Sequence record: SRR31156797_1185 | Strand: one strand, 5' to 3' | DNA length: 38,225 bases | Shown: positions 7,941 through 34,327 of the stretch, one piece after another | Numbering within the stretch: the first letter of the stretch is position 1 | Layout of the letters: the number at the start of each line of letters is the position of its first letter | Program-made: the position numbers and the translations under genes | The notes under the pieces: model-generated | Seen by the model: the letters and a program-made list of their open reading frames with translations, nothing else | Told to the model about the DNA's origin: nothing | Databases searched by the model: none

Positions 7941-8966
7941 TTACTCCGGCTGTGCGAGGACAGCGTGTGTTTTATTAAAATAGTTAGAGTCAGCTTTGAG
8001 CGGGGCATAATCAGCCTCTCTGAAAAGTTCAGCACAATCACCGACAGACATGCCTCTCCCTTCTTCTGTTTTCTCTTTTGTGTCACGTGGGTTACCGCCA
8101 CTTTCAGCCCAAAAGAGGTTTGCACCAGCATATGCACCTATGACGTTCGGCTCATGTGTACAGTTACCTTTGACACTTCTAGGTGTTGCCAGTCTTGTGA
8201 CAGCGACAATCTGAGCTATGCGAAGCTCAGAGATCATTCCGTGTTTTTCAAGGTCTGAGCCAGGGATAGTTATTCTGCGCATTGCACCGCTGAAAGCAGG
8301 ATCGAATGATGCAGCAAGGAGAATATGATCAGCTATCTGCTCATTTGTGTGCTCAGGACCGATAGGCTCTACACAGGTGCCGACAATGAGTCCTTCGTCC
8401 TGAAATGTTCGTATGCTTTTAAGTCTTTGATTAATAGAAACTTTTGTAGATGTCCCTTCTCCCATTCTGATTGCGTGGTAAACACCGTGAAAGCCAACAT
8501 CTTTCATCTGCTGGACACGTTTTTGGGACATGTCGCCGACATTAGCGACCATATATGTATTTGGTTTTAAAGATTTTTTAACTTCGGATGCGATCTCCAT
8601 AAATTTACCGAAATCGTAGTTTGCAGTAGTCATAAGGAAGACAGAAGTGTTCTCAGGTGTTTCATCAAACTTAACAGCATAATCGACAGCTTGCTCTACA
8701 GTGAGCTCTATAGGGTCTTTAAAAATGTCGTATTGAGAAGCAAATGAGCAAAACTCACAGTCTACAGGGCATGGTGCGAGGTTAAGTGCGAATTGACCGT
8801 GAACCTCAGAGTTGTTATCACAAAGCTCTCTTGAGAGTTTACCAGCTTCACCCATAATGAGTGCTGTTTCTGTTGATGCGGTAGGGTAGGATAGCATTTG
8901 AACCACTTCCTCTTTAGTGAACTGGTCTCCTGATCTCACCTTGTTGAAAATATCGTGTACGTCCAC
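7941..8966 (-). CDS. Radical SAM protein related to biotin synthase (BioB/PylB/HydE-like fold), function unknown
   Basis: CPVDCEFC motif; AVTRL...AGAN C-terminal region like BATS-domain enzymes; GTG start at 8966 after GGAGG. Confidence 0.85.
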   Translation of the reverse strand: MDVHDIFNKVRSGDQFTKEEVVQMLSYPTASTETALIMGEAGKLSRELCDNNSEVHGQFALNLAPCPVDCEFCSFASQYDIFKDPIELTVEQAVDYAVKFDETPENTSVFLMTTANYDFGKFMEIASEVKKSLKPNTYMVANVGDMSQKRVQQMKDVGFHGVYHAIRMGEGTSTKVSINQRLKSIRTFQDEGLIVGTCVEPIGPEHTNEQIADHILLAASFDPAFSGAMRRITIPGSDLEKHGMISELRIAQIVAVTRLATPRSVKGNCTHEPNVIGAYAGANLFWAESGGNPRDTKEKTEEGRGMSVGDCAELFREADYAPLKADSNYFNKTHAVLAQPE

Positions 8967-17412: not shown

Positions 17413-19023
17413 TTATATCTTTTTAACTTCAATATTAAATTTCTTTATACGATAATTCATCTGGCGCACAGTCATGTTTAGCATGCGTGCTGCTTTCGCC
17501 TGAACCCAGCCAGCTTTTTCAAGTGCCTGAACAACCTTGTCTCTCTCGCTCATATTGCCCGAGATGAGTGTTTCATCAGTTTCATTCGGAGCTGTCTGTA
17601 CTGGAACCGGAGTTATCTCAGAGCCAACCCCTGAAAGCTGCCCTTCAAGAATATGCGACATACACATCTCGCCTCGCTGACAGGATATATCTTTTATTGT
17701 GATCTCACCATTACCAGCTGAGAAAGCTGAACGCTCCAGACAGTTCTCAAGCTCACGGATGTTACCAGGATAGTTACAGTTCATCAGAGCTTTAAGAGCG
17801 TCCTGAGATATGCCGAAATATTTATTATATCTTTCGCCTAGTTTTTTAAGTATGTGCAGTGCTATCTCCGGAATGTCCTCTTTCCTCTTACGCAGAGGGG
17901 GGAGGAATATAGCAAAAACATTAAGTCTGTAGTAGAGGTCTAGCCTGAATTCTCCTGACTGGACAGCTACTTCTAGATTTTTATTAGTCGCAGCTAAAAT
18001 GCGCACGTCCACCTGTACAGGCTTATTACCGCCGAGTTTTTCAACAACCTTGTCCTGTAATACACGGAGAAGCTTACTCTGTGCTTCCATAGGCATGTCG
18101 CCTATCTCATCGAGAAATATTGTTCCGCCGTCAGCCTGCTCAAATTTACCTTTCTTTTCACCCGCAGCACCAGTAAAGGCACCTTTCGAATAGCCAAAAA
18201 GTTCGCTTTCGATCAGCTCTCCCGGTATAGCGGCGCAGTTTACTGCTATGAAAGGCTTTTTGCGCCTGTCGCTGTTATAGTGAATGGTTTTGGCTACAAC
18301 CTCTTTACCCGTACCGCTTTCGCCTCTGATGAGGACAGCCGAGTCTGAAGCTGTGACCATCTGAATCTTTTCCATCACTTTGCTCATCAGTCTGCCGGAG
18401 CCTACAAGTCCTTCGAACTGATATTTTTTAGTTACTTCGCCCATCAGTTTCAGCTTTTCAGCTTCGATCTGGCTCTTTTCTTCCTGAATAGCTTTCATCT
18501 CGCTTTCAAAGAAGTGAACTTTATGTAGGAAAGAAGCCAAAAGGGTGGCGATCATCTTTAAAATGTCCACGTCAGTTGTAATGCTGAACATTTTAGAGAC
18601 GACCTTGTCCACCGCTAGGACTCCGTATGTTTGACCTTGGTGATTTATAGGAACAGCTAAGAAGCTCACCTCTTCGCCGTCTATATCTCTCCCCAGTCTA
18701 TTTAGGAAGAGAGGTTCTTTTTTTATGTCGGGTATCATTATCGGTATGCCGTGCTTAAAAACTTTACCCACGACCCCTTCGTCAGACTTATAACTCATGT
18801 TTTTGATAGGACCGTTACTGTTTTCCATCCCTATCGATGCCTCGACAACCAGCTTGCCTGTTACCTTGTCCTGCAAAAGTATAAGCCCACGCTCCATCGA
18901 GAGGGTGTCAGACATCTGCATGAGTGACCTGTACATAGCGTGCTGAAGCTTGTTAGAGCTGTTAAGGATGACGCTTATTTCATAAATTGTGTTTAGTGCC
19001 GTTTTATAATAATTCTCATTCAT
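17413..19023 (-). CDS. nifA: Nif-specific sigma54 activator NifA (GAF-AAA+-HTH)
   Basis: GAF domain; GESGTGKE, ESELFG, GAFTGA; NifA-type HTH GWVQAKAARMLNMTVRQ; adjacent to nif genes. Confidence 0.93.
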   Translation of the reverse strand: MNENYYKTALNTIYEISVILNSSNKLQHAMYRSLMQMSDTLSMERGLILLQDKVTGKLVVEASIGMENSNGPIKNMSYKSDEGVVGKVFKHGIPIMIPDIKKEPLFLNRLGRDIDGEEVSFLAVPINHQGQTYGVLAVDKVVSKMFSITTDVDILKMIATLLASFLHKVHFFESEMKAIQEEKSQIEAEKLKLMGEVTKKYQFEGLVGSGRLMSKVMEKIQMVTASDSAVLIRGESGTGKEVVAKTIHYNSDRRKKPFIAVNCAAIPGELIESELFGYSKGAFTGAAGEKKGKFEQADGGTIFLDEIGDMPMEAQSKLLRVLQDKVVEKLGGNKPVQVDVRILAATNKNLEVAVQSGEFRLDLYYRLNVFAIFLPPLRKRKEDIPEIALHILKKLGERYNKYFGISQDALKALMNCNYPGNIRELENCLERSAFSAGNGEITIKDISCQRGEMCMSHILEGQLSGVGSEITPVPVQTAPNETDETLISGNMSERDKVVQALEKAGWVQAKAARMLNMTVRQMNYRIKKFNIEVKKI

Positions 19024-19034
19024 GTTTTAATTAA

Positions 19035-19050
19035 AGCAATGTGCGTGCCA
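19035..19050 (-). promoter_or_regulatory. sigma54 -24/-12 promoter of nifA
   Basis: TGGCACGCACATTGCT (GG-N10-GC). Confidence 0.85.
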
Positions 19051-19316: not shown

Positions 19317-19580
19317 ATGGCTTTAGTTACAGGAACAAAGAAAAACGGATCATCATGGACACCACAGTTTGTTAGCAGTATTGATAAAACGGTCTGTATC
19401 GGTTGCGCACGATGTTTTAAATCATGTGCTTACGGATGCTTAGGACCTTATGAAATAGAGGAAGAGGACGATGCGAGAATGATCATGCAGGTTACAAACG
19501 ATGGAAATTGCATCGGTTGCCGTGCATGTTCGAAAGCTTGTCCTAAAGGATGTCTCACACACGAAACAATGGAGGCTTAG
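19317..19580 (+). CDS. fdxB: Nif-specific 2[4Fe-4S] ferredoxin III
   Basis: WTPQFV..ID...CIGCARC..SC and CIGCRAC...CP. Confidence 0.88.
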   Translation: MALVTGTKKNGSSWTPQFVSSIDKTVCIGCARCFKSCAYGCLGPYEIEEEDDARMIMQVTNDGNCIGCRACSKACPKGCLTHETMEA

Positions 19581-19850
19581 ATGCTTAAAATAAACTCACT
19601 TGTGAAAGTTAATAAAATAATCAGAGATGACGGAACCTGCGCTGGGTGCAGCAGAGGCGAAGAGATCGCTTTTGTCGGACTTCAGGGGTTTATCTGTGAC
19701 ATACAGGATTTTCTTTTTGAGCCTGTTTATGTTGTTCATTTTATGGAGAGCAATAGACGTATAGGCTTCAGAGAGAAGGAGCTTGATCTTCTCGAAGATT
19801 TCGACGAAGAGACAGAGACCTGGGTGAAAGTCGCACCTTCCGTATCGTAA
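19581..19850 (+). CDS. nifZ: Nitrogen fixation protein NifZ
   Basis: IRDDGT..G..RGE, G.I.DI..FL..VY.VHF, IG.R.KEL pattern. Confidence 0.82.
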   Translation: MLKINSLVKVNKIIRDDGTCAGCSRGEEIAFVGLQGFICDIQDFLFEPVYVVHFMESNRRIGFREKELDLLEDFDEETETWVKVAPSVS

Positions 19851-20063: not shown

Positions 20064-20882
20064 CTATAGGTAACCGTATGAGCTGTCGTATCTGCCGCCG
20101 AGGACGAGGTATTCTTTCTCTCCGGCAAATTTGACATTAGGTAGAATTTCAGAAAAGAACACTATTTTAGTGTAAGGGATATCAGATGAGAGGATGTAGT
20201 CTCCGAACTGGGAGGCTATGTCTCTGTCTGAGGTGAACGAAACAAGGGAGTTCTGCTCAATGCAGAGCTTTTTCTTTTCCAGCTCCTTTACCACAAGGTG
20301 CTCGGAGAGGTCGTTAACACCTCGAAATAGTTTAAGCTTAGGGAGACTTTCGCTGTAAAAAGTTTGAAGTATGACCTGCGTATATGTATAGAGGAGATCA
20401 AGCTGATGAAAGATCATATTTTTATTATGTCTCGCATCCATCTTCGCAACCATATACTCATAATATTCCTCAGAGTTTACGTCAGGGATTATCTCCTTAT
20501 GAAAAAATGGCGTAATGCCGAACCTGCTCTCGACCCATCCTTTCATTACAGCGCCCTCGATGCTGTTCGAGTCGAAGAGCCAACCTTTCAGAAGTCTGGT
20601 ATAGCTCCCCATTTTTTTCCCGTTATGCTTCTCGCTGAGGGAGAAGAGAGATTCCATAGAGCATGTAAATATATGAGCAGCCTCTTCGATATCGCTCGCT
20701 TTTTCGATCGCTTTGAATATGTCGCCGTAGTATTCCCATACGCCGCTAATGGTTATCGGGAGAACTTTTTGGTTGTATTCGTTGCTTACAAACATTCCGG
20801 TGGGGATGTTGATCAGGTTTGTGTAATGATAGAACCTTTTCAGGTCTTTCAGTTTACTGATACTGCTCTTTTTTATGCTCAT
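20064..20882 (-). CDS. draT: NAD+--dinitrogen-reductase ADP-ribosyltransferase DraT
   Basis: SY.RLLKGW.FDSNS.EGAV.KGWVESRFG, LFRG, SFTS, GEKEYLV.GG motifs; start moved to ATG 20882 (272 aa) to avoid overlap with draG. Confidence 0.93.
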   Translation of the reverse strand: MSIKKSSISKLKDLKRFYHYTNLINIPTGMFVSNEYNQKVLPITISGVWEYYGDIFKAIEKASDIEEAAHIFTCSMESLFSLSEKHNGKKMGSYTRLLKGWLFDSNSIEGAVMKGWVESRFGITPFFHKEIIPDVNSEEYYEYMVAKMDARHNKNMIFHQLDLLYTYTQVILQTFYSESLPKLKLFRGVNDLSEHLVVKELEKKKLCIEQNSLVSFTSDRDIASQFGDYILSSDIPYTKIVFFSEILPNVKFAGEKEYLVLGGRYDSSYGYL

Positions 20883-20918
20883 GTTAATGATAATGAAATA
20901 AGTTGAACGAGTTTGCAA

Positions 20919-21812
20919 ATGAAAAATGATATAGAGGATAAAGTTGTTGCTAGTTATGTTGGTCTTTCTGTCGGTGATGCCCTCGGTGCCACCACTGAAT
21001 TTATGACGCCAAGAGAGATTGCGGCGGACTACGGCGTGCATAACAAAATTATCGGAGGAGGCTGGCTGAGGCTTAAACCGGGTAAGGTAACAGACGATAC
21101 TGAGATGAGCCTGGCTCTCGGTAACAGCATTATTGAATCTGACGGGTTTAATGTAAATTCTGTCGGCGATCACTTCGTAACATGGATGCGCTCAAAGCCT
21201 GTTGATATAGGCTCTACAGTAAGGAAGGGCATCAGGGATTATATGCTGAAGGGGATAACCATACAGATGGAATCAGACATGGCTGCCGGTAACGGTGCGG
21301 CTATGCGTAACCTTCCCATCACCATATATTGTCTGAAAAGCTGGGATTACTTTGAGCAGATGACAAGGATTCAATCGCACCTTACACACAATAATAAAAA
21401 ATCTGACCTCATAACCTTATGTTTTGGAGAGATGACAAAGATCATGCTTGAAACAGGGGATAAGCTCAAGGCGCTTGACCTTGCTAACAGGCTTATCAGA
21501 GTTAATCCGAAATTTTCATACTCTAAATATAAGGGTGAGGCGTCGGGATATATTGTGGATACCTTTAAAACTGTTTTGCACCACTTCTCAGACAGCACTG
21601 ACTTTGAGGAGACTATTACCCGTGTGGTTAATCAGGGTGGTGACGCAGATACTAACGGGGCGATAGCGGGTATGTTGGCGGGTGCTTTATGGGGTATGGA
21701 CAGTATCCCTACGAAATGGACAAAGAGGATCGATCAACAAGTTATAAAAGACATAAAAGTTCAGACTAAGAAGCTTTTAGAGCTTCCTGTGAGGTATAAT
21801 GATGAAATTTGA
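20919..21812 (+). CDS. draG: ADP-ribosyl-[dinitrogen reductase] glycohydrolase DraG
   Basis: GDALGATTEF, GGGWLRLKPG.VTDDTEM, GNGAAMR, GGDADT motifs. Confidence 0.93.
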   Translation: MKNDIEDKVVASYVGLSVGDALGATTEFMTPREIAADYGVHNKIIGGGWLRLKPGKVTDDTEMSLALGNSIIESDGFNVNSVGDHFVTWMRSKPVDIGSTVRKGIRDYMLKGITIQMESDMAAGNGAAMRNLPITIYCLKSWDYFEQMTRIQSHLTHNNKKSDLITLCFGEMTKIMLETGDKLKALDLANRLIRVNPKFSYSKYKGEASGYIVDTFKTVLHHFSDSTDFEETITRVVNQGGDADTNGAIAGMLAGALWGMDSIPTKWTKRIDQQVIKDIKVQTKKLLELPVRYNDEI

Positions 21813-22248
21813 AACAGCGGATCTGACTGATTTTTACGGTAATTTTCCAGTGGTTATAACGACTAACGGCACTGTTAAGAAGGACGGCAAGGCTAATCTC
21901 GGGCGTGGAAACGCTAAAGAGGTGGGTAAAAGCTGTGACTGGCTCGGGGAAAAACTTGGTAAACTCATCACAGAGAAGGGTAACCATGTGCATCGTATCA
22001 GTGATAATCTTGTGAGCTTTCCTGTTGAGGAGACATGGACTTCACATGCGGAGATGAGGCTTGTTATCCGTTCCGCATATGAGCTTAGAGACCTGACTGA
22101 TGAGATGGAGTGGGACAGAGTTTACATGCCTCTTCCTGGCTGCGGCGGCGGTGGATTACGTCCTTCTGATGTGATATCCGTGCTCGCACCGATACTTGAT
22201 GACAGGTTCATTGTGCTTAATAAAGGCGAAGTTCCGGCACTCTTGTAG
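21799..22248 (+). CDS. Macrodomain (ADP-ribose-binding/processing) protein
   Basis: ITTN...LGRGNA, SFPV..W and PLPGCGGGGL Gly-rich loops; overlaps the draG stop. Confidence 0.75.
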   Translation: MMKFETADLTDFYGNFPVVITTNGTVKKDGKANLGRGNAKEVGKSCDWLGEKLGKLITEKGNHVHRISDNLVSFPVEETWTSHAEMRLVIRSAYELRDLTDEMEWDRVYMPLPGCGGGGLRPSDVISVLAPILDDRFIVLNKGEVPALL

Positions 22249-22254
22249 ATTAGG

Positions 22255-23571
22255 TTAGATACTTTTTGAGTCCATATGTCTTGCGAGAGCTTTACTTACA
22301 CGAGAGGTGATACTTTCGACAGTATCATTTTGTCGATAACAGCTAACTCCGTATGAGATGTATAAACCTTTTACCACTTGGAACTCATGGGATTCGATGA
22401 TGTTTTTCAATCTGGCAGACATTTTTTCTGCGTCTACTCTGATTATCTCAGGGCTGACAATCATAAATTCACTATCGTTCAGCCTTCCTACTGTATCTAC
22501 AACTCTGGCATTACTTTTAATCAAGCTGTAAAGTTCTTTGATCGCTTGCTCTTTTGCTTGGTTTCCATATGTCGCTTTAATCGTGTTGATACAATCGATT
22601 GATACTAGTGTTATAGAAAAGTCCCGCCCGTATCGTTCTGAATGCTGTATCATTTTTTCAATATTTGCCATGAAGTAATCTCTATTATCAGAACCTGCAA
22701 GCTCATAGGTTGTGGACTTTTTCTTCAGATCCGAATTACATAAAGAGATATCACTGTCGTATCTTCTGAGCATATTTCTTACTAGCTTTTCAAAAATTAA
22801 TGTTATTGAGAAAGCACAGCCAATAATTAAAACAGAAAAAATGTAAGTAAAATGTTTATGCTCTACATAAGTATCGTTAATGCTCTGCTTTTCATTATTG
22901 ATGTATGCTTCAAGGTTGTCGAGATTAAGCCCGGTTGCAATTATCCAGTTATAAGGTTCATACAGCTTTGCGTATGAAAGCTTTTTGATCATTTTGTCAG
23001 AGTTGATGCTCTTAAAATAATAGCTGAAAAAGAGCTCTCCGTAATTCTTTATTCCGTTTAGCTCCTCTTCGTAAGGTCTGTTACCTTTTATATCTGTAAG
23101 GTTAGTAGAGAGCATCATCCCTTCGGTGTGAGGAAGGTTAGGGTGGATAGCCCTGAATGCGTAGTTGTCGCCGCCCTCGAAGTTTATCACTTGATTTACC
23201 CATATGTACTCGTTGTTTTTACTAAGGCGTATATCTCTTATGAGCCCTTTGATTTTACTGATGTTTACTCCGTCTAGCTCTTGCTGAGTATACCCTTTCC
23301 CGTCTAGCTCCTGTCTTGTCTGTCTGCGCATGTGTTCGATCATGTATATAGTTCGTTCAATGGCAGACTTAAGAAACTGCTTCTTCTCTTCGAGAACCTT
23401 AGCCTCAAGCTGATCGAGGCTGCGCTTAAGCTCATAGTCCATGGTGTGTACATGTGCGGCTGTAATAGTTAATGAGAGTAGACATACTGGTAAGAGTACT
23501 CCTGTATAAAACATCAGACGGACTTTCTTGTTTGCGATATTGACCTTGTCTGAAAGTAACATTGTAAGCAC
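22255..23571 (-). CDS. Cache-domain membrane sensor with degenerate GGDEF domain
   Basis: TM-Cache-TM, then GGDEF-like fold with RLNDSEF; exact start uncertain (GTG 23571 or ATG 23562). Confidence 0.85.
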   Translation of the reverse strand: MLTMLLSDKVNIANKKVRLMFYTGVLLPVCLLSLTITAAHVHTMDYELKRSLDQLEAKVLEEKKQFLKSAIERTIYMIEHMRRQTRQELDGKGYTQQELDGVNISKIKGLIRDIRLSKNNEYIWVNQVINFEGGDNYAFRAIHPNLPHTEGMMLSTNLTDIKGNRPYEEELNGIKNYGELFFSYYFKSINSDKMIKKLSYAKLYEPYNWIIATGLNLDNLEAYINNEKQSINDTYVEHKHFTYIFSVLIIGCAFSITLIFEKLVRNMLRRYDSDISLCNSDLKKKSTTYELAGSDNRDYFMANIEKMIQHSERYGRDFSITLVSIDCINTIKATYGNQAKEQAIKELYSLIKSNARVVDTVGRLNDSEFMIVSPEIIRVDAEKMSARLKNIIESHEFQVVKGLYISYGVSCYRQNDTVESITSRVSKALARHMDSKSI

Positions 23572-23769: not shown

Positions 23770-24657
<888 letters not shown>

Positions 24658-24762
24658 GTAGCACCTAACTGCTTAATATAAGTTAATTCAATTTACTGCC
24701 CTGTAAATCTTTCCCTCGCTGGGGTGAGTAGGGGTAGTTCGCTAAATAAATGAGGTAATCAC

Positions 24763-26205
24763 ATGGCTGATAAGAATGTACATGAACATGGCGTCGAGGT
24801 AATGGAAGAAATCCTCGACGGATATAATGATAAAACGAAAAAAGATAGAAAGAAGAAACTGGATGTTGTTAAAGCTGATGACGTTAAATGCGGAATCAAC
24901 GCTAACAGAAAGATCCGCCCAGGTGTAATGTCTATGCGCGGTTGTGCATACGCTGGAGCGAAGGGTGTGGTTTTCGGTCCTATTAAGGATATGATCCACA
25001 TATCTCACGGTCCTGTCGGCTGCGGTCAGTATTCATGGGCTGCTAGACGTAACTTCGCAAATGGTACCGTTGGTGTTGATAACTATGTACCAATGCAGAT
25101 CACATCAGATTTTCAAGAGAAAGATATTGTATTTGGTGGAGATAAAAAACTTACTAACCTTATCGAAGAGGCTAACACACTTTTTCCACTTAATAAGGGT
25201 GTTTCAGTTCTTTCCGAGTGTCCTATCGGGCTTATCGGTGATGACATCGAGGCTGTTTCAAGAGCGACTTCTAAGTCTATCGAAAAACCTGTAATCCCTT
25301 GCCGTTGTGAAGGATTTAGAGGTGTTTCACAGTCCCTCGGTCACCACATTGCTAACGACTCACTCAGAGACTGGGTATATGAGAAAGACATCCAAGGTGC
25401 TGCTCTGGAAGGTACACCTTATGATGTAGCTCTCATCGGTGACTATAACATCGGTGGTGACGCCTGGTCTTCCCGTATGATCCTTGAGGACATGGGGCTT
25501 AACGTTGTGGCTCAGTCCACTGGTGACGCTTCTATCTCTGAGATAGCGAACACAGCAAAGGCTAAGCTTATCCTTATCCACTGCTACCGTTCAATGAACT
25601 ACATCTCAAGATACCTCGAAGAGAAACACGGTATCCCATGGGTAGAGTTTAACTTCTTCGGACCTACACAGGTTTTCAAATCTATGAGACTGATCGCTGA
25701 GAAATTCGACGACAGTATCAAAGAGAAGACTGAGAAGGTTATCAAAGAGAAGTACGAGCCTGAGTTTAAGAAGATCGTAGAGAAGTTCAAGCCTAGAATG
25801 GAAGGTAAAAACTGTATGCTCTTCGTAGGTGGACTCAGACCTCGTCACACAATCCCTGCTTTCCGTGACCTCGGTGTAGAGGTTGGAATCACAGGTTATG
25901 AATTCGCACACAATGACGACTACGCAAGAACTCTTGAGTATGTAGAAAACACTACATTCATCATCGACGACATGAACGAATACGAAATGGAAAAACTCGT
26001 AGAAAACTTCAAGCCTGACCTCGTAGGTTCCGGTATTAAAGAGAAGTATTCCACACAGAAATCCGGTATTCCGTTCCGTCAGATGCACTCTTGGGACTAC
26101 TCTGGTCCTTACCACGGGCTTGATGGCTTTGCAGTATTCGCAAGAGACATGGACATGGCTGTAAACGGTCCTGTTTGGAAAAAGCTTACACCACCATGGA
26201 AATAA
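24763..26205 (+). CDS. nifD: Mo-nitrogenase MoFe protein alpha chain
   Basis: RGCAYAG, GPVGC, SECP P-cluster Cys; HCYRS and [10 protein letters not shown] FeMoco ligands. Confidence 0.99.
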
Positions 26206-26224
26206 TTTTAGGGAGTTAATAAAA

Positions 26225-27736
26225 ATGAGTGAAAAACTAAACATTAAAGATCATATAGACCTGTTCAAACGCGAAGACTATGTCGAGCTGTTTGAAAACA
26301 AAAAGAAATACGAAAACGCTGAGACTCAGGCTAAAGTGGATGAAATTCTCGAATGGACAAAGTCTGAGGAATACAAGAAGATCAACTTTGAGAGAAAAGA
26401 CCTTGTTGTAAACCCACTTAAATCCTGTCAGCCACTTGGCGGACTTTACGCTGCTATCGGTTTTGAGAAGACTATGCCTTTTGTACACGGTTCACAAGGT
26501 TGTGCCTCTTACTTCCGTTCACACTTTATGCGTCACTTCCGTGAGCCTTTCCCAACTTCATGCGATGCCATGACAGAGGACGCAGCGGTTTTCGGTGGAC
26601 ACAACGCACTTTACCTCGGTCTCCAGAACACTTACGAGCTGTTCAAACCTGAGATGATAGCAATTGTAACATCCTGCATGTCTGAGGTTATCGGTGACGA
26701 CCTTAACAACTTCGTTAAGAATGCTAAGGATGAAGACTATATTCCGAAAGATTTTCCTGTGACATTTGCTCACACACCATCATTTGTTGGCTCCCATGTT
26801 GTGGGTTACGATGCAATGATGAACGCTATCCTCACTCAGATGGGCGAGGTTAAAGAAGAGAAGACAGACAAGATCAACGTGATCATGGGATTTGATACAT
26901 ATATCGAAAACTTCAACGAAGTTAAGCGTATCTTCGACCTGTTCGGTGCTGAGCTTACACTTCTCTCCGATCCTACAGAAACACTTAATTCACCAACTGA
27001 TGGTAATTATCAGATGTATGCTGGCGGAACTCCACTCGCTGACATCAAGGATGCTCCTAACGCTAAAGGTGCTATCCTCATGCAGAAATACTCTCTTATT
27101 AAGACAAAAGAGACTCTCGAAGGTTGGGGGCAGGACGTTAAAGTTGTAAGCCCTTACGGTATAGAAGGTACTGACGAGCTTATAATGGCTATCTCAGAGC
27201 TTACTGGAAAGCCAGTTCCTGCTGAGCTTGAGAAAGAGCGTGGTCAGCTTCTTGATGCTATCGCTGACTCATACTACTGGGTACACGGTAAAACTTTTGG
27301 AATCAATGGTGACCCTGACTTCTCACTCGCACTTACAAAATTCGTAATGGAGCTTGGCGGTGAGCCGGTACACGTTCTCTGTACTAACGGTGGTAAACCT
27401 TGGGGTAAAGAGTGTACTGAGCTTCTTGAAAGTTCAGAGTATGGTGCAGGCGGAACAGCTTACCCACAGAAAGATATGTGGCACTACCGTTCACTCCTCT
27501 TCACTGAGCCTGTGGACTACATAATTGGTAACTCATACAGCAAATTCCTCGAGCGTGATACTGGTGTGCCTCTTGTGCGTATCGGTTTCCCACTTCAGGA
27601 CAGACACCACCTCCACAGATATCCGACACTCGGATACAAAGGTGGCGTACAGATGCTCACTTGGATAGTTAACGAAATCCTCGATGATATCGATGGCAAG
27701 ACTAAAGACGGTCCAAGTTACGATCTTCTGAGATAA
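26225..27736 (+). CDS. nifK: Mo-nitrogenase MoFe protein beta chain
   Basis: CQPLG, HGSQGC, TSCMSE, HTPSF, GFP..DRH. Confidence 0.99.
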   Translation: MSEKLNIKDHIDLFKREDYVELFENKKKYENAETQAKVDEILEWTKSEEYKKINFERKDLVVNPLKSCQPLGGLYAAIGFEKTMPFVHGSQGCASYFRSHFMRHFREPFPTSCDAMTEDAAVFGGHNALYLGLQNTYELFKPEMIAIVTSCMSEVIGDDLNNFVKNAKDEDYIPKDFPVTFAHTPSFVGSHVVGYDAMMNAILTQMGEVKEEKTDKINVIMGFDTYIENFNEVKRIFDLFGAELTLLSDPTETLNSPTDGNYQMYAGGTPLADIKDAPNAKGAILMQKYSLIKTKETLEGWGQDVKVVSPYGIEGTDELIMAISELTGKPVPAELEKERGQLLDAIADSYYWVHGKTFGINGDPDFSLALTKFVMELGGEPVHVLCTNGGKPWGKECTELLESSEYGAGGTAYPQKDMWHYRSLLFTEPVDYIIGNSYSKFLERDTGVPLVRIGFPLQDRHHLHRYPTLGYKGGVQMLTWIVNEILDDIDGKTKDGPSYDLLR

Positions 27737-28028: not shown

Positions 28029-28056
28029 CTAAGTGAAGTTTCAATGGGAGTTGTAT

Positions 28057-29421
28057 ATGAAACTTAGTCTACAGACACTGATTAACGAGCCGGGTTGCGA
28101 CCACAATCAGGCTAAGACAGATAAACAGAAGAAAGACGCATGTAAGAAACCGACCCCAGGTGCTACAGCAGGCGGATGCGCTTTTGACGGCGCACAGATC
28201 GTTCTGCTCCCTGTGGCTGACGCCGCACACCTTATCCACGGACCAATTACATGCTGCGGTCATAGCTATAACAACCGTGGCACCCGCTCCACTGTGGGCG
28301 ACATGCACAGCTACGGTTTCACAACAGACATATCAGAAATGGACATAATATTCGGCGCTGAAAAGAAGCTTGCCGAGTCCATCAAATACATCGCAGAAAA
28401 CTATAAACCGAAAGCAATATTTGTATATTCAACCTGTGTCACAGCCATGATAGGCGAAGACATCCATCAGGTTTGTAAAGAGACTTCCAGTGAGGTTGGG
28501 CTGCCTGTTGTTCCGGTCGACTCCCCCGGTTTTGCGGGCAGCAAAAACCTCGGTAATAAGTTCGCAGGTCATTCCATAGTCGAACATGTTGTTGGAAGCA
28601 TAGAACCGAAGTCAGTTCCTGAGAAATCGATCAACCTGATAGGGGAGTACAACATAGCCGGTGAGCTATGGCAGGTTGAGCCGATACTGAAAGACCTCGG
28701 GATAAACATTCTTTCACGTATGACAGGTAACGCCACTTACGAAGAGATGGCATACGCTGACAAGGCTCACGCTTCTGTTGTCATATGCAGCCGTGCGCTC
28801 ATATCAATAGCACGTCAGCTTGAAGAGAAGTACAGCATCCCTTATGCAGAGGGGTCATTTTACAGTATGAAGCAGACGAAAGAGACTCTTTTGAGCATCG
28901 CAAAAATGCTGAAAAGTGATGAACTGAAAGGTAAAATCGAAGAATACACCGCTAAGAAAGAAGCGGAGACATATGAAAGGCTTAAACCTTATCTCCCTAT
29001 TCTAAAAGGTAAAAAAGTTCTTGTTTATACAGGCGGAGTTAAAAGCTGGTCTGTTTTACATCAGCTCGAAGAGCTCGGGATGGAAGTTATCAAATCGAGT
29101 ACAAGAAAATCCACAGAAGAGGATATCGAGAGGATTCTCGATCACTTTGAAGGTAATAAAGAAGGACTTCTTCCGAAAGCAACAGGTAAAAGCCTGCTTG
29201 CACTTATGAAAGAGCAGGGCGGAGACCTTTTCCTCGCCGGCGGACGTAATATGTATAACGCTATGAAAGGACAGGTTCCATTTCTCGATGTCAATCAGGA
29301 GCGTCTTTTCGCTTACGCAGGTTACGACGGAATGGTAGAGCTTGCGAAAAATATGGCACATTCACTTGAATCGCCCGTTTTTGAAATAGCTCATAGCAAA
29401 GCTCCGTGGGAGGTGATCTGA
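28057..29421 (+). CDS. nifE: FeMo-cofactor scaffold NifE
   Basis: GGCAFDGA, HGP..C, STCV, GEYNIAGE, YTGGVKSWS; ATG 28057 after GGGAG. Confidence 0.97.
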   Translation: MKLSLQTLINEPGCDHNQAKTDKQKKDACKKPTPGATAGGCAFDGAQIVLLPVADAAHLIHGPITCCGHSYNNRGTRSTVGDMHSYGFTTDISEMDIIFGAEKKLAESIKYIAENYKPKAIFVYSTCVTAMIGEDIHQVCKETSSEVGLPVVPVDSPGFAGSKNLGNKFAGHSIVEHVVGSIEPKSVPEKSINLIGEYNIAGELWQVEPILKDLGINILSRMTGNATYEEMAYADKAHASVVICSRALISIARQLEEKYSIPYAEGSFYSMKQTKETLLSIAKMLKSDELKGKIEEYTAKKEAETYERLKPYLPILKGKKVLVYTGGVKSWSVLHQLEELGMEVIKSSTRKSTEEDIERILDHFEGNKEGLLPKATGKSLLALMKEQGGDLFLAGGRNMYNAMKGQVPFLDVNQERLFAYAGYDGMVELAKNMAHSLESPVFEIAHSKAPWEVI

Positions 29422-30728
29422 TGGTTAAAATTATAGATAAACCCCTCAGCGTTAACCCACTGAAGAAGAGCCAGATACTCGGCGCTGTTACTGCCTTTTT
29501 AGGCATAGACGGTTGTATGCCGCTTATACATGGTTCTCAGGGGTGTATGGCGTTTACTAAAAATTTCCTTACGCAGCATTATCGTGAGGTGACACCTATG
29601 CAGTCCACCGCTGTGTTTGACATAGCGACTATCATCGGTGACGACTCTAACCTTCACGATGGTTTAAAGAATATTATCGAGAAGCAGAAACCGAAAATTA
29701 TCGGACTTTGTACATCTGGTATGACAGAGACCAGAGGGGACGATATGAAGGGTGTTCTCGATAGATTCAGAGAGCTTTACCCTGAATATGATGAAACTGT
29801 TATTGTTCCAGTAGGGACTGCTGATTTTGTCGGAGATGCTGAAACTGGCTACGGGAAAGCAGTTGCGAAGATATTAGAATTCGCAGTTAAGCCTGTGGCA
29901 CTGAAAAAATATAACGATAAACCACGTATGAACATATTAGCCGGAATGCACCTTAACGCCGCTGACATAGATTGGCTCAGGCGTTTGCTAGGTGATTTTG
30001 GCATAGACGCATTTGTTATACCTGATCTAGCTTCTACTATGGGCGGTCAGGTGACAAGGTTTTACAGCCTGCCTGAAGAGGGGAGTTCACTTGATGATAT
30101 ATCCACTGCCGGAGCGGCGGATTTCACTATAGCTGTCGGTTCGAGCATGGAGATGGCAGCTGATGTACTCCTTGAAAAGCACAGTGTACCTTATAAGAAA
30201 TTTGATACACTGACAGGTATTAAGGCTACTGATGAACTTCTTAGCTGGCTGATAGATTATACCGGCAAGCCTGTTCCTGAGTGGGTACAGATAGAGAGAA
30301 AGCGTGCTCTTGACGCTATGCTGGACGCTCACTTCAGCTTTGGCGGAAAGACTTGTTCCATCGCTGCTGAACCTGACCTTTTATACGGGCTGGGCAGATA
30401 TATCAGCGAGGAGCTCGGCATAAAGCTTGAGTGTGTTGTGACCACTGCAAAAGATGGAGTTTTTGAGGCTCTCAAGGCAGAGCACACCATTTACGGTGAT
30501 CTGCTTGATCTGGAACAGCACCTCGATGAATCTGACTTTGTGATAGGCAATTCGAACACAGGAAATATTTGTAAAAGAAAGGAATTACCTCTGTATAAAG
30601 CTGGCTATCCGATAAAGGATATGCTCGGGCATTTTCACAGGCATTTTATAGGTTACAGAGGGGCTATGCAGTTAGCTTTTGACCTTGGAAATATATGCCT
30701 CGACAAAGATATAGAAGTATCACATTAG
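29421..30728 (+). CDS. nifN: FeMo-cofactor scaffold NifN
   Basis: VNPLKKSQ.LGA, HGSQGC, DAMLDAHF; TGATG coupling to nifE. Confidence 0.96.
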   Translation: MVKIIDKPLSVNPLKKSQILGAVTAFLGIDGCMPLIHGSQGCMAFTKNFLTQHYREVTPMQSTAVFDIATIIGDDSNLHDGLKNIIEKQKPKIIGLCTSGMTETRGDDMKGVLDRFRELYPEYDETVIVPVGTADFVGDAETGYGKAVAKILEFAVKPVALKKYNDKPRMNILAGMHLNAADIDWLRRLLGDFGIDAFVIPDLASTMGGQVTRFYSLPEEGSSLDDISTAGAADFTIAVGSSMEMAADVLLEKHSVPYKKFDTLTGIKATDELLSWLIDYTGKPVPEWVQIERKRALDAMLDAHFSFGGKTCSIAAEPDLLYGLGRYISEELGIKLECVVTTAKDGVFEALKAEHTIYGDLLDLEQHLDESDFVIGNSNTGNICKRKELPLYKAGYPIKDMLGHFHRHFIGYRGAMQLAFDLGNICLDKDIEVSH

Positions 30729-31670: not shown

Positions 31671-32780
31671 TTATAGTGCGATTTTAGAATATAGGTCGAT
31701 TACCTGTGCTTTGTTAAGCACTGATTTGTTCTTTCTTGAAAGCTTCTTCGCCTGATGCAGAAGCCCTGTCAGCTGAAACTCTTCTAAGAATAATCCTTCC
31801 TGTTCGAGTATATATTTCAAAACAGCAGCGCCAGACTGGTTGCCAAAAACTAGGTTGCGCTCCATATTCAGCTCCGCTGGGTCAAATGGCTCGTAATTTT
31901 TAGGATTTTTGAGTACGCCGTCGGTGTGTATACCTGATTCGTGAGTGAACATAAACTCGCCAATGACAGGTCTCTGTGGGTCTATCCCTCTGCCGGCAGC
32001 TTTGGCGACATATTCTGAAAGTGAGCGCATATTCTTAGTGTCGAAGTGGTCTTCCATACTGTAGATATGCCTTGATGCCATAATCACCTCTTCAAGAGGG
32101 GTGTTGCCAGCACGTTCACCAAGCCCGATTACGGTGGTGTTCACGTGGGTTGCACCTGCTTTGACAGCCGCCATAGCATTTGCAGTAGCCATGCCGAAGT
32201 CGTTATGCGTGTGTACTTCTATATCCATATCTGTGATTGAACGTATCTGTTTAATTATATCATGTGTTTTGAATGGATCGAGAATGCCGACTGTATCACA
32301 GAATCTGAATCTGTCAGCTCCGTGCGCCTCGATGGTTTTTACATATTCAGCAATGAATTCAAAGTCAGCCCTTGAGGCATCCTCACCGCCAACTGATACA
32401 TAAATATCCTGTGTAGCACAGTAATCGAGCACGGACTTAACCTGATCAAGAACCCACTCTCTCGTTTTGTTCAGCTTTGTATGTATCTGTATATCTGACA
32501 TAGGGAGGGAAATCTCTATAGCTTTCGCCCCAGCCGCAACAGATGCTTCTACGTCACCGATAAGTGCTCTGTTCCATGCGATAATTCTCGCATCAAGGTC
32601 AAGCTCCAGTATAGCCTCAAACATGGCGGATTCTGCCACACCCATTACAGGTATGCCAGCCTCTATCTCCTGAACACCGATAGCGTCAAGGTGCTTAGCT
32701 ATCGTCAGCTTCTCTGTTTTTGTGAATGCTACGCCAGGTGTCTGTTCTCCGTCTCTTAGTGTAGTGTCGTCAATAATCAT
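31671..32780 (-). CDS. nifV: Homocitrate synthase
   Basis: DTTLRDGEQ, EAGIP.MG, EDASRA, HTHNDFG, GLGERAGN, FTHESGIH; no LeuA regulatory domain; ATG 32780 after GGGAG. Confidence 0.93.
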   Translation of the reverse strand: MIIDDTTLRDGEQTPGVAFTKTEKLTIAKHLDAIGVQEIEAGIPVMGVAESAMFEAILELDLDARIIAWNRALIGDVEASVAAGAKAIEISLPMSDIQIHTKLNKTREWVLDQVKSVLDYCATQDIYVSVGGEDASRADFEFIAEYVKTIEAHGADRFRFCDTVGILDPFKTHDIIKQIRSITDMDIEVHTHNDFGMATANAMAAVKAGATHVNTTVIGLGERAGNTPLEEVIMASRHIYSMEDHFDTKNMRSLSEYVAKAAGRGIDPQRPVIGEFMFTHESGIHTDGVLKNPKNYEPFDPAELNMERNLVFGNQSGAAVLKYILEQEGLFLEEFQLTGLLHQAKKLSRKNKSVLNKAQVIDLYSKIAL

Positions 32781-32802
32781 ATTTAACTCCCGGTAATGTA
32801 TA

Positions 32803-32818
32803 TGCAAAGAGCGTGCCA
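32803..32818 (-). promoter_or_regulatory. sigma54 promoter of nifV
   Basis: TGGCACGCTCTTTGCA. Confidence 0.88.
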
Positions 32819-32842
32819 CATCAACGAAGCCTATATATAGTG

Positions 32843-32949: not shown

Positions 32950-32965
32950 TGGCATACGGGTTGCT
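32950..32965 (+). promoter_or_regulatory. sigma54 promoter of nifB
   Basis: TGGCATACGGGTTGCT. Confidence 0.85.
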
Positions 32966-32986: not shown

Positions 32987-34327
32987 ATGCATAAAGACGA
33001 AGTAAGAGAAAAGATTGAAAAGCACCCTTGCTACTGTAAGGATGCTCACGATAAATACGCGAGGATTCACCTTCCGGTTGCCCCTGCGTGCAACATTCAG
33101 TGCAACTACTGTAATAGAAAATACGACTGTTCAAACGAGTCAAGACCTGGTGTAACCAGCGGTATACTCAACCCTGAGCAGGCACTTGAAAAAGTGATAA
33201 TGATAGAACAGGCACTCGACAACCTAAGTGTTGTTGGTATCGCAGGCCCTGGGGATGCACTTGCAAATCCGGCACAAACTTTCGAGACCCTGCGTCTGCT
33301 TAAGGCGTATAAGTCTGAGCTTATCCCTTGTATCAGCACCAACGGACTTAACCTCCCTGATTATGTGGACGAGATAAAAGAGCTAGGCATCAGCCACGTA
33401 ACAGTGACAATGAATGCTGTTGACCCTGAGATAGGGCAGCACATATATAGCTGGATTCACCATGAGGGGAAAACCTATCACGGCGTTGAAGCGGCTGCAA
33501 AGCTCCTTGAAAGACAGCTACAGGGCATTAAGATGCTCGTAGAGAGAGACATCCTTGTAAAAATTAATACTGTCCTCATACCGGGGATAAACGACGAACA
33601 CATAACAGAAGTCGCTAAAAAGATTAAAGAGCTTGGTGTTTTCATACATAACATTCTACCGCTGATGAGTAAGCCTGAATACGGCACAAAGTTCGCCAAA
33701 GACGGTGTACCTGAGCCGGATATCAAGATGGTTGCTAAAGCACGTTTTAACTGTGCAGAGATAATGGGCGGATTCGATAATGTTATGCAGCACTGCCGTC
33801 AATGCAGGGCTGATGCTATTGGTAAACTAGGACAGGATTTCGATATCAACTCGCTTAGCGATGAAATCATAGACAACTCTTCGGCTGTGAAGACGCAGGT
33901 TATGAATAACCACCGTACTTTTGTCAGCCAGTCAGTACAGGAGAATTCATCTAAACAATCCCGTAATAAAATGGTGCTTGTGGCTGTGGCGACAGAGAAT
34001 AACTATCTCTCTGATGTTACATTTAAAAACGCCAGAACATTTTATGTTTACGAGGTTTCTGGGTGGGGCGCTCACCTGCGTGAGATCAGAACTCTCCAGT
34101 ATGACGAGCACGATGCATGTATCAAGCTTTCCGGACACCTTAAGAATGTGTTGGATTTACTTAAGGACTGTTCGGTTATGGTTTGTTCTATCGCTGGAAA
34201 GAGTGCTGTGGATGAGATGCGCAGAAGGGGAATTATTATAGATACTTCTGTGGCTCATAAAGGTCTTGAGCACGCTGCCTGGCATTCAGGTATGAAGAGG
34301 CTCGAAGAGAGTAAGGTTACAGCTTAA
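32987..34327 (+). CDS. nifB: FeMo-cofactor biosynthesis radical SAM protein NifB with C-terminal NifX-like domain
   Basis: HPC, RIHLPVAPACNIQCNYC, ESRPG, AGPGD, HCRQCRADA. Confidence 0.97.
   Translation: MHKDEVREKIEKHPCYCKDAHDKYARIHLPVAPACNIQCNYCNRKYDCSNESRPGVTSGILNPEQALEKVIMIEQALDNLSVVGIAGPGDALANPAQTFETLRLLKAYKSELIPCISTNGLNLPDYVDEIKELGISHVTVTMNAVDPEIGQHIYSWIHHEGKTYHGVEAAAKLLERQLQGIKMLVERDILVKINTVLIPGINDEHITEVAKKIKELGVFIHNILPLMSKPEYGTKFAKDGVPEPDIKMVAKARFNCAEIMGGFDNVMQHCRQCRADAIGKLGQDFDINSLSDEIIDNSSAVKTQVMNNHRTFVSQSVQENSSKQSRNKMVLVAVATENNYLSDVTFKNARTFYVYEVSGWGAHLREIRTLQYDEHDACIKLSGHLKNVLDLLKDCSVMVCSIAGKSAVDEMRRRGIIIDTSVAHKGLEHAAWHSGMKRLEESKVTA

Follow-up and report, generated by a model that had tools for sequence, protein, structure and literature searches.

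A Glu-type macrodomain encoded beside draG as a candidate third component of the DraT/DraG switch

Introduction

DraT and DraG are the textbook example of bacterial regulatory ADP-ribosylation, and reviews describe them as a writer–eraser pair (e.g., PMC8120803 and PMC7050489; here and below, papers given by PMC number are cited for the passages excerpted from them). Does this pair have a third partner in some diazotrophs? The question is raised by a 38,225-nt stretch of DNA from sequence record SRR31156797_1185 (hereafter the window, meaning the whole stretch that was analyzed), in which an open reading frame (ORF; 21799..22248, + strand) overlaps the end of draG within a nif cluster. Its 149-aa product, termed here the macro protein, belongs to the macrodomain superfamily and, by similarity, to its ALC1-like branch (the DarG/TARG1 class), but it lacks the catalytic lysine of that class; a glutamate at this position places it in what we call the Glu-type (E-type) subfamily. 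The overlap with draG, the existence of DraG fusions, and the near-restriction of the subfamily to DraT-bearing diazotrophs point to an unrecognized third component in two phyla, and the macro protein is probably an undescribed third member of the ADP-ribosylation system by which nitrogen fixation is switched off and on.

The new element is a nif-dedicated macrodomain subfamily with a Lys-to-Glu exchange, a candidate for a third partner of DraT and DraG. No macrodomain of a dra system was described in the literature searched, a search that subscription journals lay outside, and public annotation stops at "ADP-ribose-binding protein." The carriers include Geobacter-type metal reducers, which are environmentally important. 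The subfamily also bears on the question of an in vivo role for macrodomains as readers or erasers of arginine-linked ADP-ribose, which a 2010 review stated as undetermined (PMC3102197), and its Lys-to-Glu exchange amounts to a clean natural experiment.

Fold and ligand-binding loops

The structure of the macro protein was modeled with confidence by AF2 (pLDDT 91.9, pTM 0.88) and, together with the Foldseek results, identifies a three-layer alpha/beta/alpha macro fold. Foldseek against the PDB placed DarG on top (5m3e, E 1.1e-8, template modeling [TM] score 0.78; also 5m3i, TM 0.77–0.78), with TARG1 below it (4j5q, E 3.3e-7, TM 0.70) and then coronavirus Mac1 (TM ~0.65). There were 141 PDB matches at E<=1e-3, and among the matches listed nearly all are named macrodomains, the few others being a de novo designed serine hydrolase and an uncharacterized Bacteroides protein. 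A profile built from an alignment of 46 homologous sequences, A1, retrieved the same class from the PDB sequences, namely, DarG of M. tuberculosis (5m3i, E 3.9e-8), DarTG of Thermosipho (5e-8), DarG of T. aquaticus (5e-6), and TARG1 (2e-5), followed by macroH2A (0.06–0.2) and, weakly, SCO6735 (0.17). The profile was required, as a single-sequence phmmer search of the PDB returned only matches at E ~1. A previous reading made from the sequence alone had likened the loops of this ORF by eye to those of DarG and TARG1, and both the profile and the structural search agree with it. The Pfam scan of the macro protein gave no match at E<=1, so that the gathering score of PF01661 (Macro) was not reached, because the Pfam Macro model is insensitive to this branch.

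A chance ORF is ruled out by conservation: a search of 5.8 billion proteins found 325 homologues of the macro protein at E<=1e-3, and 28 columns of A1 are invariant. Several of these homologues, from Denitrovibrio, Geovibrio, Geobacter, Geomonas, and Desulfuromonas, bear the NCBI name "ADP-ribose-binding protein." Denitrovibrio acetiphilus DSM 12809 is the source of homologue P0004.

All four motifs quoted in the sequence-only reading are present. TTNG occupies residues 21–24 (21859..21870, +), with T21, T22, and G24 invariant in A1, and LGRGNA, residues 34–39 (21898..21915, +), forms the phosphate-binding loop 1 (G-x-G), in which G35 and G37 are invariant and LGRG aligns with the MGKG(I/V)A phosphate loop of DarG. 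PLPGCGGGGL, residues 111–120 (22129..22158, +), corresponds to the diphosphate/distal-ribose loop 2, with G114, G116, G118, and G119 invariant, and aligns with PPLGVGNGGL of DarG and PRIGCGLDRL of TARG1. As judged from these alignments, the ADP-ribose-binding loops are retained in this predicted binder. Between the two loops lie a GNHVH motif (21979..21993, +) that contributes His63 and His65 and the stretch FPVEETW, residues 74–80, with the Glu77 codon GAG at 22027..22029 (+).

FPVEETW aligns with FPTKKHW, which places Glu77 at the position of DarG Lys80 and TARG1 Lys84. The mechanism of TARG1 passes through a lysyl-ADP-ribose intermediate (PMC7050489), and its catalytic dyad (PMC7050489, PMC9411070) is gone from the macro protein, in which Glu takes the place of Lys84 and Gly118 that of the acidic residue 125, a position that is Gly in DarG too. 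DarG K80A is inactive and does not rescue cells from DarT, and DarG N22A has strongly reduced activity (PMC5179494); Asn23 of the macro protein appears to be the counterpart of N22 of T. aquaticus DarG, as inferred from its position in the motif rather than from structural superposition. Ancestral Lys-type hydrolysis has thus probably been lost by the macro protein on the evidence of its residues, and the earlier suggestion of binding rather than catalysis is plausible.

A Glu-type clade within a Lys-type family

To what does the glutamate belong: to one protein or to a lineage? Searching 1.84 billion cluster representatives with the A1 profile returned 6480 proteins at E<=1e-3, 3258 at <=1e-10, and 527 at <=1e-30. 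Position 77 is Glu in the window protein and in all 120 of its nearest homologues, and more distant relatives carry SFPVK, TFPVK, or SFPTK together with PRPGCGNGGL. By motif, 269 proteins divided into 127 Glu-type, 139 Lys-type, and 3 unclear sequences. In a FastTree phylogeny of 157 tips (proteins of 120–200 aa with <=25% gaps, every third Glu-type sequence being used), the 42 Glu-type tips form one clade without a Lys-type member (support 0.988). The sequence-only reading had noted FPVE at the position of FPTK in DarG; this mapping proved correct, and in the sequences sampled, it is Glu at position 77 that defines the nif-linked clade.

The clade differs from its relatives at further positions, counted in an hmmalign alignment of a 133-row Glu group, which includes about 5 mis-binned Lys-motif proteins with insertions, against 136 Lys-type rows. 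His63 is present in 122/133 Glu-group rows vs 67/136 Lys-type rows, and His65 in 126/133 vs 48/136; position 117 is predominantly Gly in the Glu group (101/133) and Asn in the Lys-type (104/136). Asn23 is universal in the Lys-type (136/136); in the Glu group it is Asn in 113 rows and Ser in 16. The median isoelectric point (pI) of the Glu-type clade is mildly acidic, 6.1, compared with 7.8 for the Lys-type relatives. Taken from the alignment, the invariance of Glu77, the gain in His63/His65 conservation, and the mostly kept Asn23 point to a specific new role and not to decay.

These features leave some room for catalysis. The macro protein could be a hydrolase with new, Glu-dependent chemistry, a second eraser beside DraG, whose substrates might be ADP-ribosyl-arginine forms poorly handled by DraG, off-target or auto-modification by DraT, or a processed ADP-ribose product. 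The forms poorly handled by DraG might include the other anomer of ADP-ribosyl-arginine, an idea that draws no support from this analysis. This class already cleaves an N-glycosidic link, as DarG does on thymidine-linked ADP-ribose (PMC7050489, PMC5179494), and SCO6735, with Gln at the Lys position, is active (PMC9411070); two erasers in tandem would also be compatible with the DraG fusions described below. The strict invariance of Glu77, two histidines far more conserved than in the Lys-type relatives, and the retention of the counterpart of the activity-relevant DarG Asn in 113 of the 133 rows lean the same way. However, the sole known catalytic residue of DarG is gone, the position of the acidic partner in TARG1 is Gly here as in DarG, and the Asn23-to-Ser change of 16/133 Glu-group rows is found in 0/136 Lys-type rows. 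To our knowledge, no macrodomain cleaves arginine-linked ADP-ribose, an activity that reviews assign to DraG/ARH enzymes. The assignment is made in PMC8120803 and PMC7050489, and the Q85E variant of SCO6735, with Glu at the very position in question, is dead on a DNA substrate (PMC9411070). We therefore regard a new hydrolase as rather unlikely and continue to favor a binding accessory of DraG.

The Lys-type relatives match phrog_335, and NADAR, SLOG/YpsA, or DUF4326 domains occur as fusion partners in some of them. One of them, P0124, has 108 phage records, annotated as "ADP-ribose-binding protein," "phosphatase," or "Macro domain-like." Pfam Macro applied to 13 Lys-type relatives was passed weakly by 6 (23.2–32.3 bits, cut-off 22), with 3 below the cut-off and 4 without a match. 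By sequence relationship, this Lys-type phage/conflict-system macro family is the parent family of the Glu-type clade. The two share a length of ~150 aa, the motifs TTNG, GRG, SFPV, and PGCG..GGL, and the NCBI name; they differ in that the phrog_335 family keeps the catalytic Lys and the Asn of GCGNGGL, is found in phages, and has NADAR, SLOG, and DUF4326 fusions, none to DraG.

Linkage and fusion to DraG

The link to DraG begins with the layout of the window. draG (20913..21812, +; PF03747) encodes an ADP-ribosyl-[dinitrogenase reductase] hydrolase that matches TIGR02662 at E 5.5e-112 with 373.7 bits (cut-off 337), and its true start is likely the ATG at 20919. The macro ATG at 21799 lies inside the draG 3' end, whose stop TGA is at 21810–21812; the overlap read from the sequence is 14 nt (21799..21812, +), which bears out the overlap with the draG stop noted earlier for this ORF. 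A GAGG Shine-Dalgarno-like element lies 5' of the macro ATG at 21791–21794, and the overlap together with this element suggests translational coupling of draG and macro. The presumed target, the Fe protein gene nifH, is an ORF at 23788..24657 (+), with Arg101 in GCAGRGVI (codon 24088–24090).

Whether this arrangement holds in relatives was examined in one genome per GTDB species, with 80 loci kept from 96 relatives. These come from Deferribacterales, Desulfuromonadales/Geobacterales, several "Deltaproteobacteria" metagenome-assembled genomes (MAGs), and one MAG labeled Gammaproteobacteria. The Deferribacterales loci L001–L005 have the layout of the window, with draT divergent from draG, draG overlapping macro, and then nifHDK; the draG match ends at 8008–8011 and macro starts at 8001 (1762 and 1755 in L003). 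Geobacter-type loci follow the order draG(-)/nifB/GNAT/nifV/two small ORFs/macro, with a nitrogenase-associated, ArsC-like TIGR01616 gene, nifH, cowN, or modABC-nifHDK 3' of macro, and in 7 of them draG is directly divergent from macro. Desulfuromonas-type loci read draT-draG-small ORFs-macro-FKBP. Neighbors were counted by tblastn with cluster representatives in the available flanks, which reach 8 kb at most. One or more core nif/dra genes were found in 48 of the 80 loci, draG in 25 (within 1.5 kb in 17), and draT in 10.

Several loci had further conserved neighbors. Two small conserved ORFs lie directly 5' of macro in the Desulfuromonadia loci L009–L080 (e.g., L013:7459-8004 and L070:6073-6700). 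One, c3, is ~96–104 aa and lies <=600 nt from macro in 30/80 loci; the other, c20/c26, is ~80–100 aa and has an HTH_17-like N-terminus with a Cys/Gly-rich tail, e.g. GCGGGCGSGCGGH, its two clusters being homologous to each other (hhalign probability 99.2). Neither c3 nor c20/c26 matched a Pfam or NCBIfam family or has a counterpart in the window, and both may be further members of the module. In 12/80 loci (L008, L021, L022, L025, L028, L030, L035, L036, L042, L048, L051, and L056), a conserved operon begins ~30–80 nt 3' of macro and encodes a circularly permuted ATP-grasp protein, an Alpha-E protein, a transglutaminase-like protein, two AstE/AspA-like proteins, and one class-I glutamine amidotransferase.

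In some Desulfuromonadia, DraG and the macro protein are a single polypeptide. Several macro matches in this group lay in open frames of ~450 aa, and in four of six regions fetched (L081, L082, L083, and L085), DraG and a Glu-type macro share one frame without a stop, just 3' of draT; the other two regions contain long spurious frames and no fusion. A search for longer homologues in the protein collection returned 8 proteins, 7 of which are 443–445 aa long and carry PF03747, and one fusion protein is already named ADP-ribosyl-[dinitrogen reductase] hydrolase. Three fusions were scanned: each scored 422–427 bits against TIGR02662 (cut-off 337) over residues ~7–290 and matched the DarG model over residues ~353–435. 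The fusions carry TTNG, GNHVH, SFPVEH, and GCGGGGL, and their domain order, DraG then macro, is the gene order of the window. AF2 folded one natural fusion with both domains confident and a pTM of 0.71; a linker of ~5 residues separates the end of the DraG helix, near residue 295, from the start of the first macro strand at 301.

A linker this short to the DraG C-terminus is typical of a regulatory domain, which brings in another possibility, that the macro pocket is a small-molecule sensor that binds free ADP-ribose, NAD+, or ADP as a measure of energy or nitrogen status and switches DraG accordingly. Such a sensor would replace or supplement the PII/AmtB sequestration known from alpha-proteobacteria. 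The overlap of the macro gene with draG, the combination of kept binding loops with changed catalytic residues, and the optional presence of the gene among DraT-bearing genomes, as expected for a lineage-specific regulatory add-on, would all suit it. However, the computed results fit a free and a protein-bound ligand alike, and an invariant Glu beside C1'' is better explained by a ligand with a substituent at C1''. A sensor of free nucleotides is accordingly unlikely in our estimation, more so than a new hydrolase, and an accessory that binds ADP-ribose moieties in the service of DraG is preferred.

Co-occurrence with DraT and NifH

Co-occurrence was counted in the genomes reached through related loci, the Desulfuromonadia being represented by a sample of 251. 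The 68 Deferribacterota genomes include 18 with macro (E<1e-50), 24 with DraT, and 27 with NifH above the cut-off, and the sets are nested: each of the 18 macro genomes also has DraT, all 24 genomes with DraT are among the 27 with NifH, and macro occurs in 0/44 DraT-negative genomes (Fisher p 1e-11). Among the 251 Desulfuromonadia, 124 have macro, 200 have DraT, and 194 have NifH above the cut-off; 122 have both macro and DraT, 2 macro only, 78 DraT only, and 49 neither, which puts macro in 2/51 DraT-negative genomes (Fisher p 6e-15). Of the two macro-only genomes, G210 has NifH, and the macro match of G302 is in two adjacent pieces. DraT thus accompanies macro in 18/18 and 122/124 macro-positive genomes, and a coupling to draG and nif, which the sequence-only reading had proposed to look for in co-occurrence, is found in the neighborhoods, in the co-occurrence, and in the natural fusions. 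The association extends beyond physical linkage, as macro and draT are unlinked in many macro-positive genomes; in 7 Deferribacterota genomes, macro lies on another contig or >100 kb from draT.

A last alternative is that the macro gene is a domesticated remnant, derived from a phage or conflict system, whose position close to nif genes is incidental and which plays no part in controlling nitrogenase. The nearest non-nif relatives are indeed phage and conflict proteins (phrog_335, P0124 with its phage records, and the NADAR/SLOG/DUF4326 fusions), and 32 of the 80 loci have no core nif/dra neighbor in the flank. Nevertheless, the clade is kept across two phyla and shows 28 invariant alignment columns, it is fused to bona fide DraG, and it is nearly exclusive to DraT-bearing genomes even where the genes are unlinked. 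A remnant is already disfavored and, in our judgment, very improbable, and the connection of the macro protein with the DraT/DraG switch is retained.

Two arrangements of dra genes were observed in passing. The Deferribacterota genomes G035–G039 and G041 have two DraT genes each, each near a NifH above the cut-off, and macro accompanies just one dra locus of each pair, a pattern suggestive of two nitrogenase systems under separate regulation. In Geobacterales (G003 among many Geobacter-type genomes), a long distance usually separates draT from draG: the two are on different contigs or hundreds of kb apart. Since draG remains in the nifB-nifV-macro cluster, the classical draTG operon has been split in Geobacterales.

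Proposed role

How would such a protein act on the switch? We put at about an even chance that the macro protein is an accessory that binds an ADP-ribose moiety and works with DraG in the DraT/DraG switch of NifH Arg101, the site modified by DraT (PMC8120803). It descends from Lys-dependent macro hydrolases of the DarG/TARG1 class, a widespread and partly phage-borne family, with both ADP-ribose loops kept and the catalytic Lys exchanged for an invariant Glu. The moiety bound would be ADP-ribosyl-Arg101 on NifH or ADP-ribose freed by DraG; macro domains can bind Arg-ADP-ribosylated proteins in pull-downs cited in PMC3102197. Positioned beside DraG, as a presumably co-translated partner in the window and, in some Desulfuromonadia, fused to the DraG C-terminus, the macro protein may target, hold, or gate the access of DraG to modified NifH. 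Glu77 would lie next to C1'' of the distal ribose and could there form a charge pair with the cationic ribosyl-guanidinium linkage. Candidate roles include passing modified NifH to DraG and shielding it from DraG until a signal arrives, and the protein might also accept the ADP-ribose released by DraG or sense free nucleotide.

Several points weigh against this proposal. Co-occurrence is confounded by phylogeny, and both Fisher tests ignore kinship; in Desulfuromonadia, DraT is not separable from diazotrophy, because NifH and DraT are found in 194 and 200 of the same 251 genomes. Macro is absent from 6/24 DraT-positive Deferribacterota and 78/200 DraT-positive Desulfuromonadia; being present in 61–75% of DraT-bearing genomes in the two groups, it is a lineage-specific elaboration and not a core part of the switch. 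The 32 loci without a core nif or dra neighbor within flanks of up to 8 kb, already mentioned, count here too. With a pTM of 0.71 for the fusion model, no fixed interface between DraG and macro is established. NifH is reported to be modified at a single Arg101, on one subunit of its dimer. With a single modified Arg101, macro and DraG could not be on the same ADP-ribose at once, and a simple recruiting reader would therefore need a hand-off step. Finally, pure catalytic loss would not require Glu to be invariant across two phyla, and the invariant Glu, the conserved His63/His65, and an active, Lys-less SCO6735 leave room for catalysis.

These features permit a bolder proposal, which we consider possible yet on balance doubtful: the macro protein may be the first macrodomain specialized for arginine-linked ADP-ribose, its Glu fitting the cationic ribosyl-guanidinium, either as a reader built into an eraser or as a Glu/His-dependent enzyme. 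If true, the reader form would be the first natural in vivo reader of arginine ADP-ribosylation, built into the eraser as DraG::macro, and the enzyme form would clear or convert ADP-ribosyl-arginine species beyond the reach of DraG. In either case, the two-component DraT/DraG switch would become a three-component one in Deferribacterota and Desulfuromonadia.

Comparison with known systems

The DarG macrodomain (5M3E/5M31 from T. aquaticus, 5M3I from M. tuberculosis, and 7OMU from Thermosipho) is the best match by both structure and profile. It has the same minimal macro fold with two ligand loops, and it is paired with an ADP-ribosyltransferase, as the macro protein is here. However, DarG has Lys80 where the window protein has Glu, and it carries a C-terminal DarT-binding domain and is ~340–400 aa long, whereas the window protein has 149 aa and no such domain. 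The partner DarT acts on DNA thymidine, in contrast to the neighbors in the window, which are draG and draT (PF07357) with no darT; a review table lists DraT as an R-S-E type enzyme acting on a NifH Arg (PMC8120803). The basic DNA-binding surface of DarG (PMC7050489) likewise contrasts with the mildly acidic Glu-type clade (median pI 6.1). A DarG-type antitoxin is ruled out by the score against the NCBIfam DarG model NF048014 (only 22.2 bits vs a cut-off of 250 bits), by the length of 149 aa, and by the neighbors.

TARG1 (C6orf130; 4J5Q-S) belongs to the ALC1-like class as well, and the GCG of loop 2 is common to both proteins; the difference lies in the lost dyad. SCO6735 of Streptomyces coelicolor (5E3B) is a closer parallel in one respect, since it is ALC1-like and has also lost the catalytic Lys, with Gln85 in its place. 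It differs in being a demonstrated hydrolase of Glu-linked protein ADP-ribose and thymidine-linked DNA ADP-ribose, under DNA-damage control (PMC9411070), and in having no DraG or nif link.

A further accessory of dra systems, already known as the third gene in some dra operons, is DraB, the nitrogenase-associated, ArsC-like TIGR01616 protein, whose gene resembles macro in adjoining draT/draG or nifH and follows draTG in Rhodospirillum. DraB has an ArsC/Spx-like thioredoxin fold rather than a macro fold. A TIGR01616 gene of this type lies directly 3' of macro in some Geobacter-type loci, for instance at 48 nt in L023.

Other features of the window

The region around the macro gene is a nif cluster. 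draT, which encodes dinitrogenase reductase ADP-ribosyltransferase (20064..20882, -; PF07357 E 1.6e-91), is divergent from draG. The match to PF07357 begins only at residue 118 of an over-long ORF, so that the real extent of the gene is probably 20064..20882; a start at Met98 of that ORF gives 272 aa, equal to the length of the L001 homologue. The ATG codons of draT and draG are ~36 bp apart on opposite strands (20882–20919), and each promoter must therefore sit within the opposite gene. The long ORFs at 20064..21173 (-) and 20364..20906 (+) are artifacts of this divergent layout.

At lower coordinates than draT lie genes for a NifA-like sigma-54 activator (17413–19023, -) and a nif-specific ferredoxin III (19317–19580). 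An 89-aa ORF directly 3' of the ferredoxin III gene (19581–19850, +) is kept in L001, L002, L004, and L005 at 59–83% identity, and Pfam and NCBIfam scans assigned it to no family. On the other side of macro follow a Cache-GGDEF gene (22255–23571, -), nifHDK (23788–27736), nifEN (28033–30728), nifX (30847), a DUF269 gene (31220), nifV (31671–32819, -), and nifB (32987–34327). The Cache-GGDEF gene, a diguanylate cyclase-type sensor gene between draG-macro and nifH, is convergent with macro at a stop-to-stop gap of 6 bp; its position is occupied by a weakly similar gene in L004 and not in L001–L003 or L005.

The sigma-54 promoter-like pattern TGGYRY-N5-TTGCW has no match before draG or nifH in the window at that stringency. 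It occurs 4 times in the window, against 0.31 expected by chance: three matches lie just 5' of the nifA-like gene (19035–19050, -), nifV (32803–32818, -), and nifB (32950–32965, +), and the fourth (24315–24330, +) lies within nifH.

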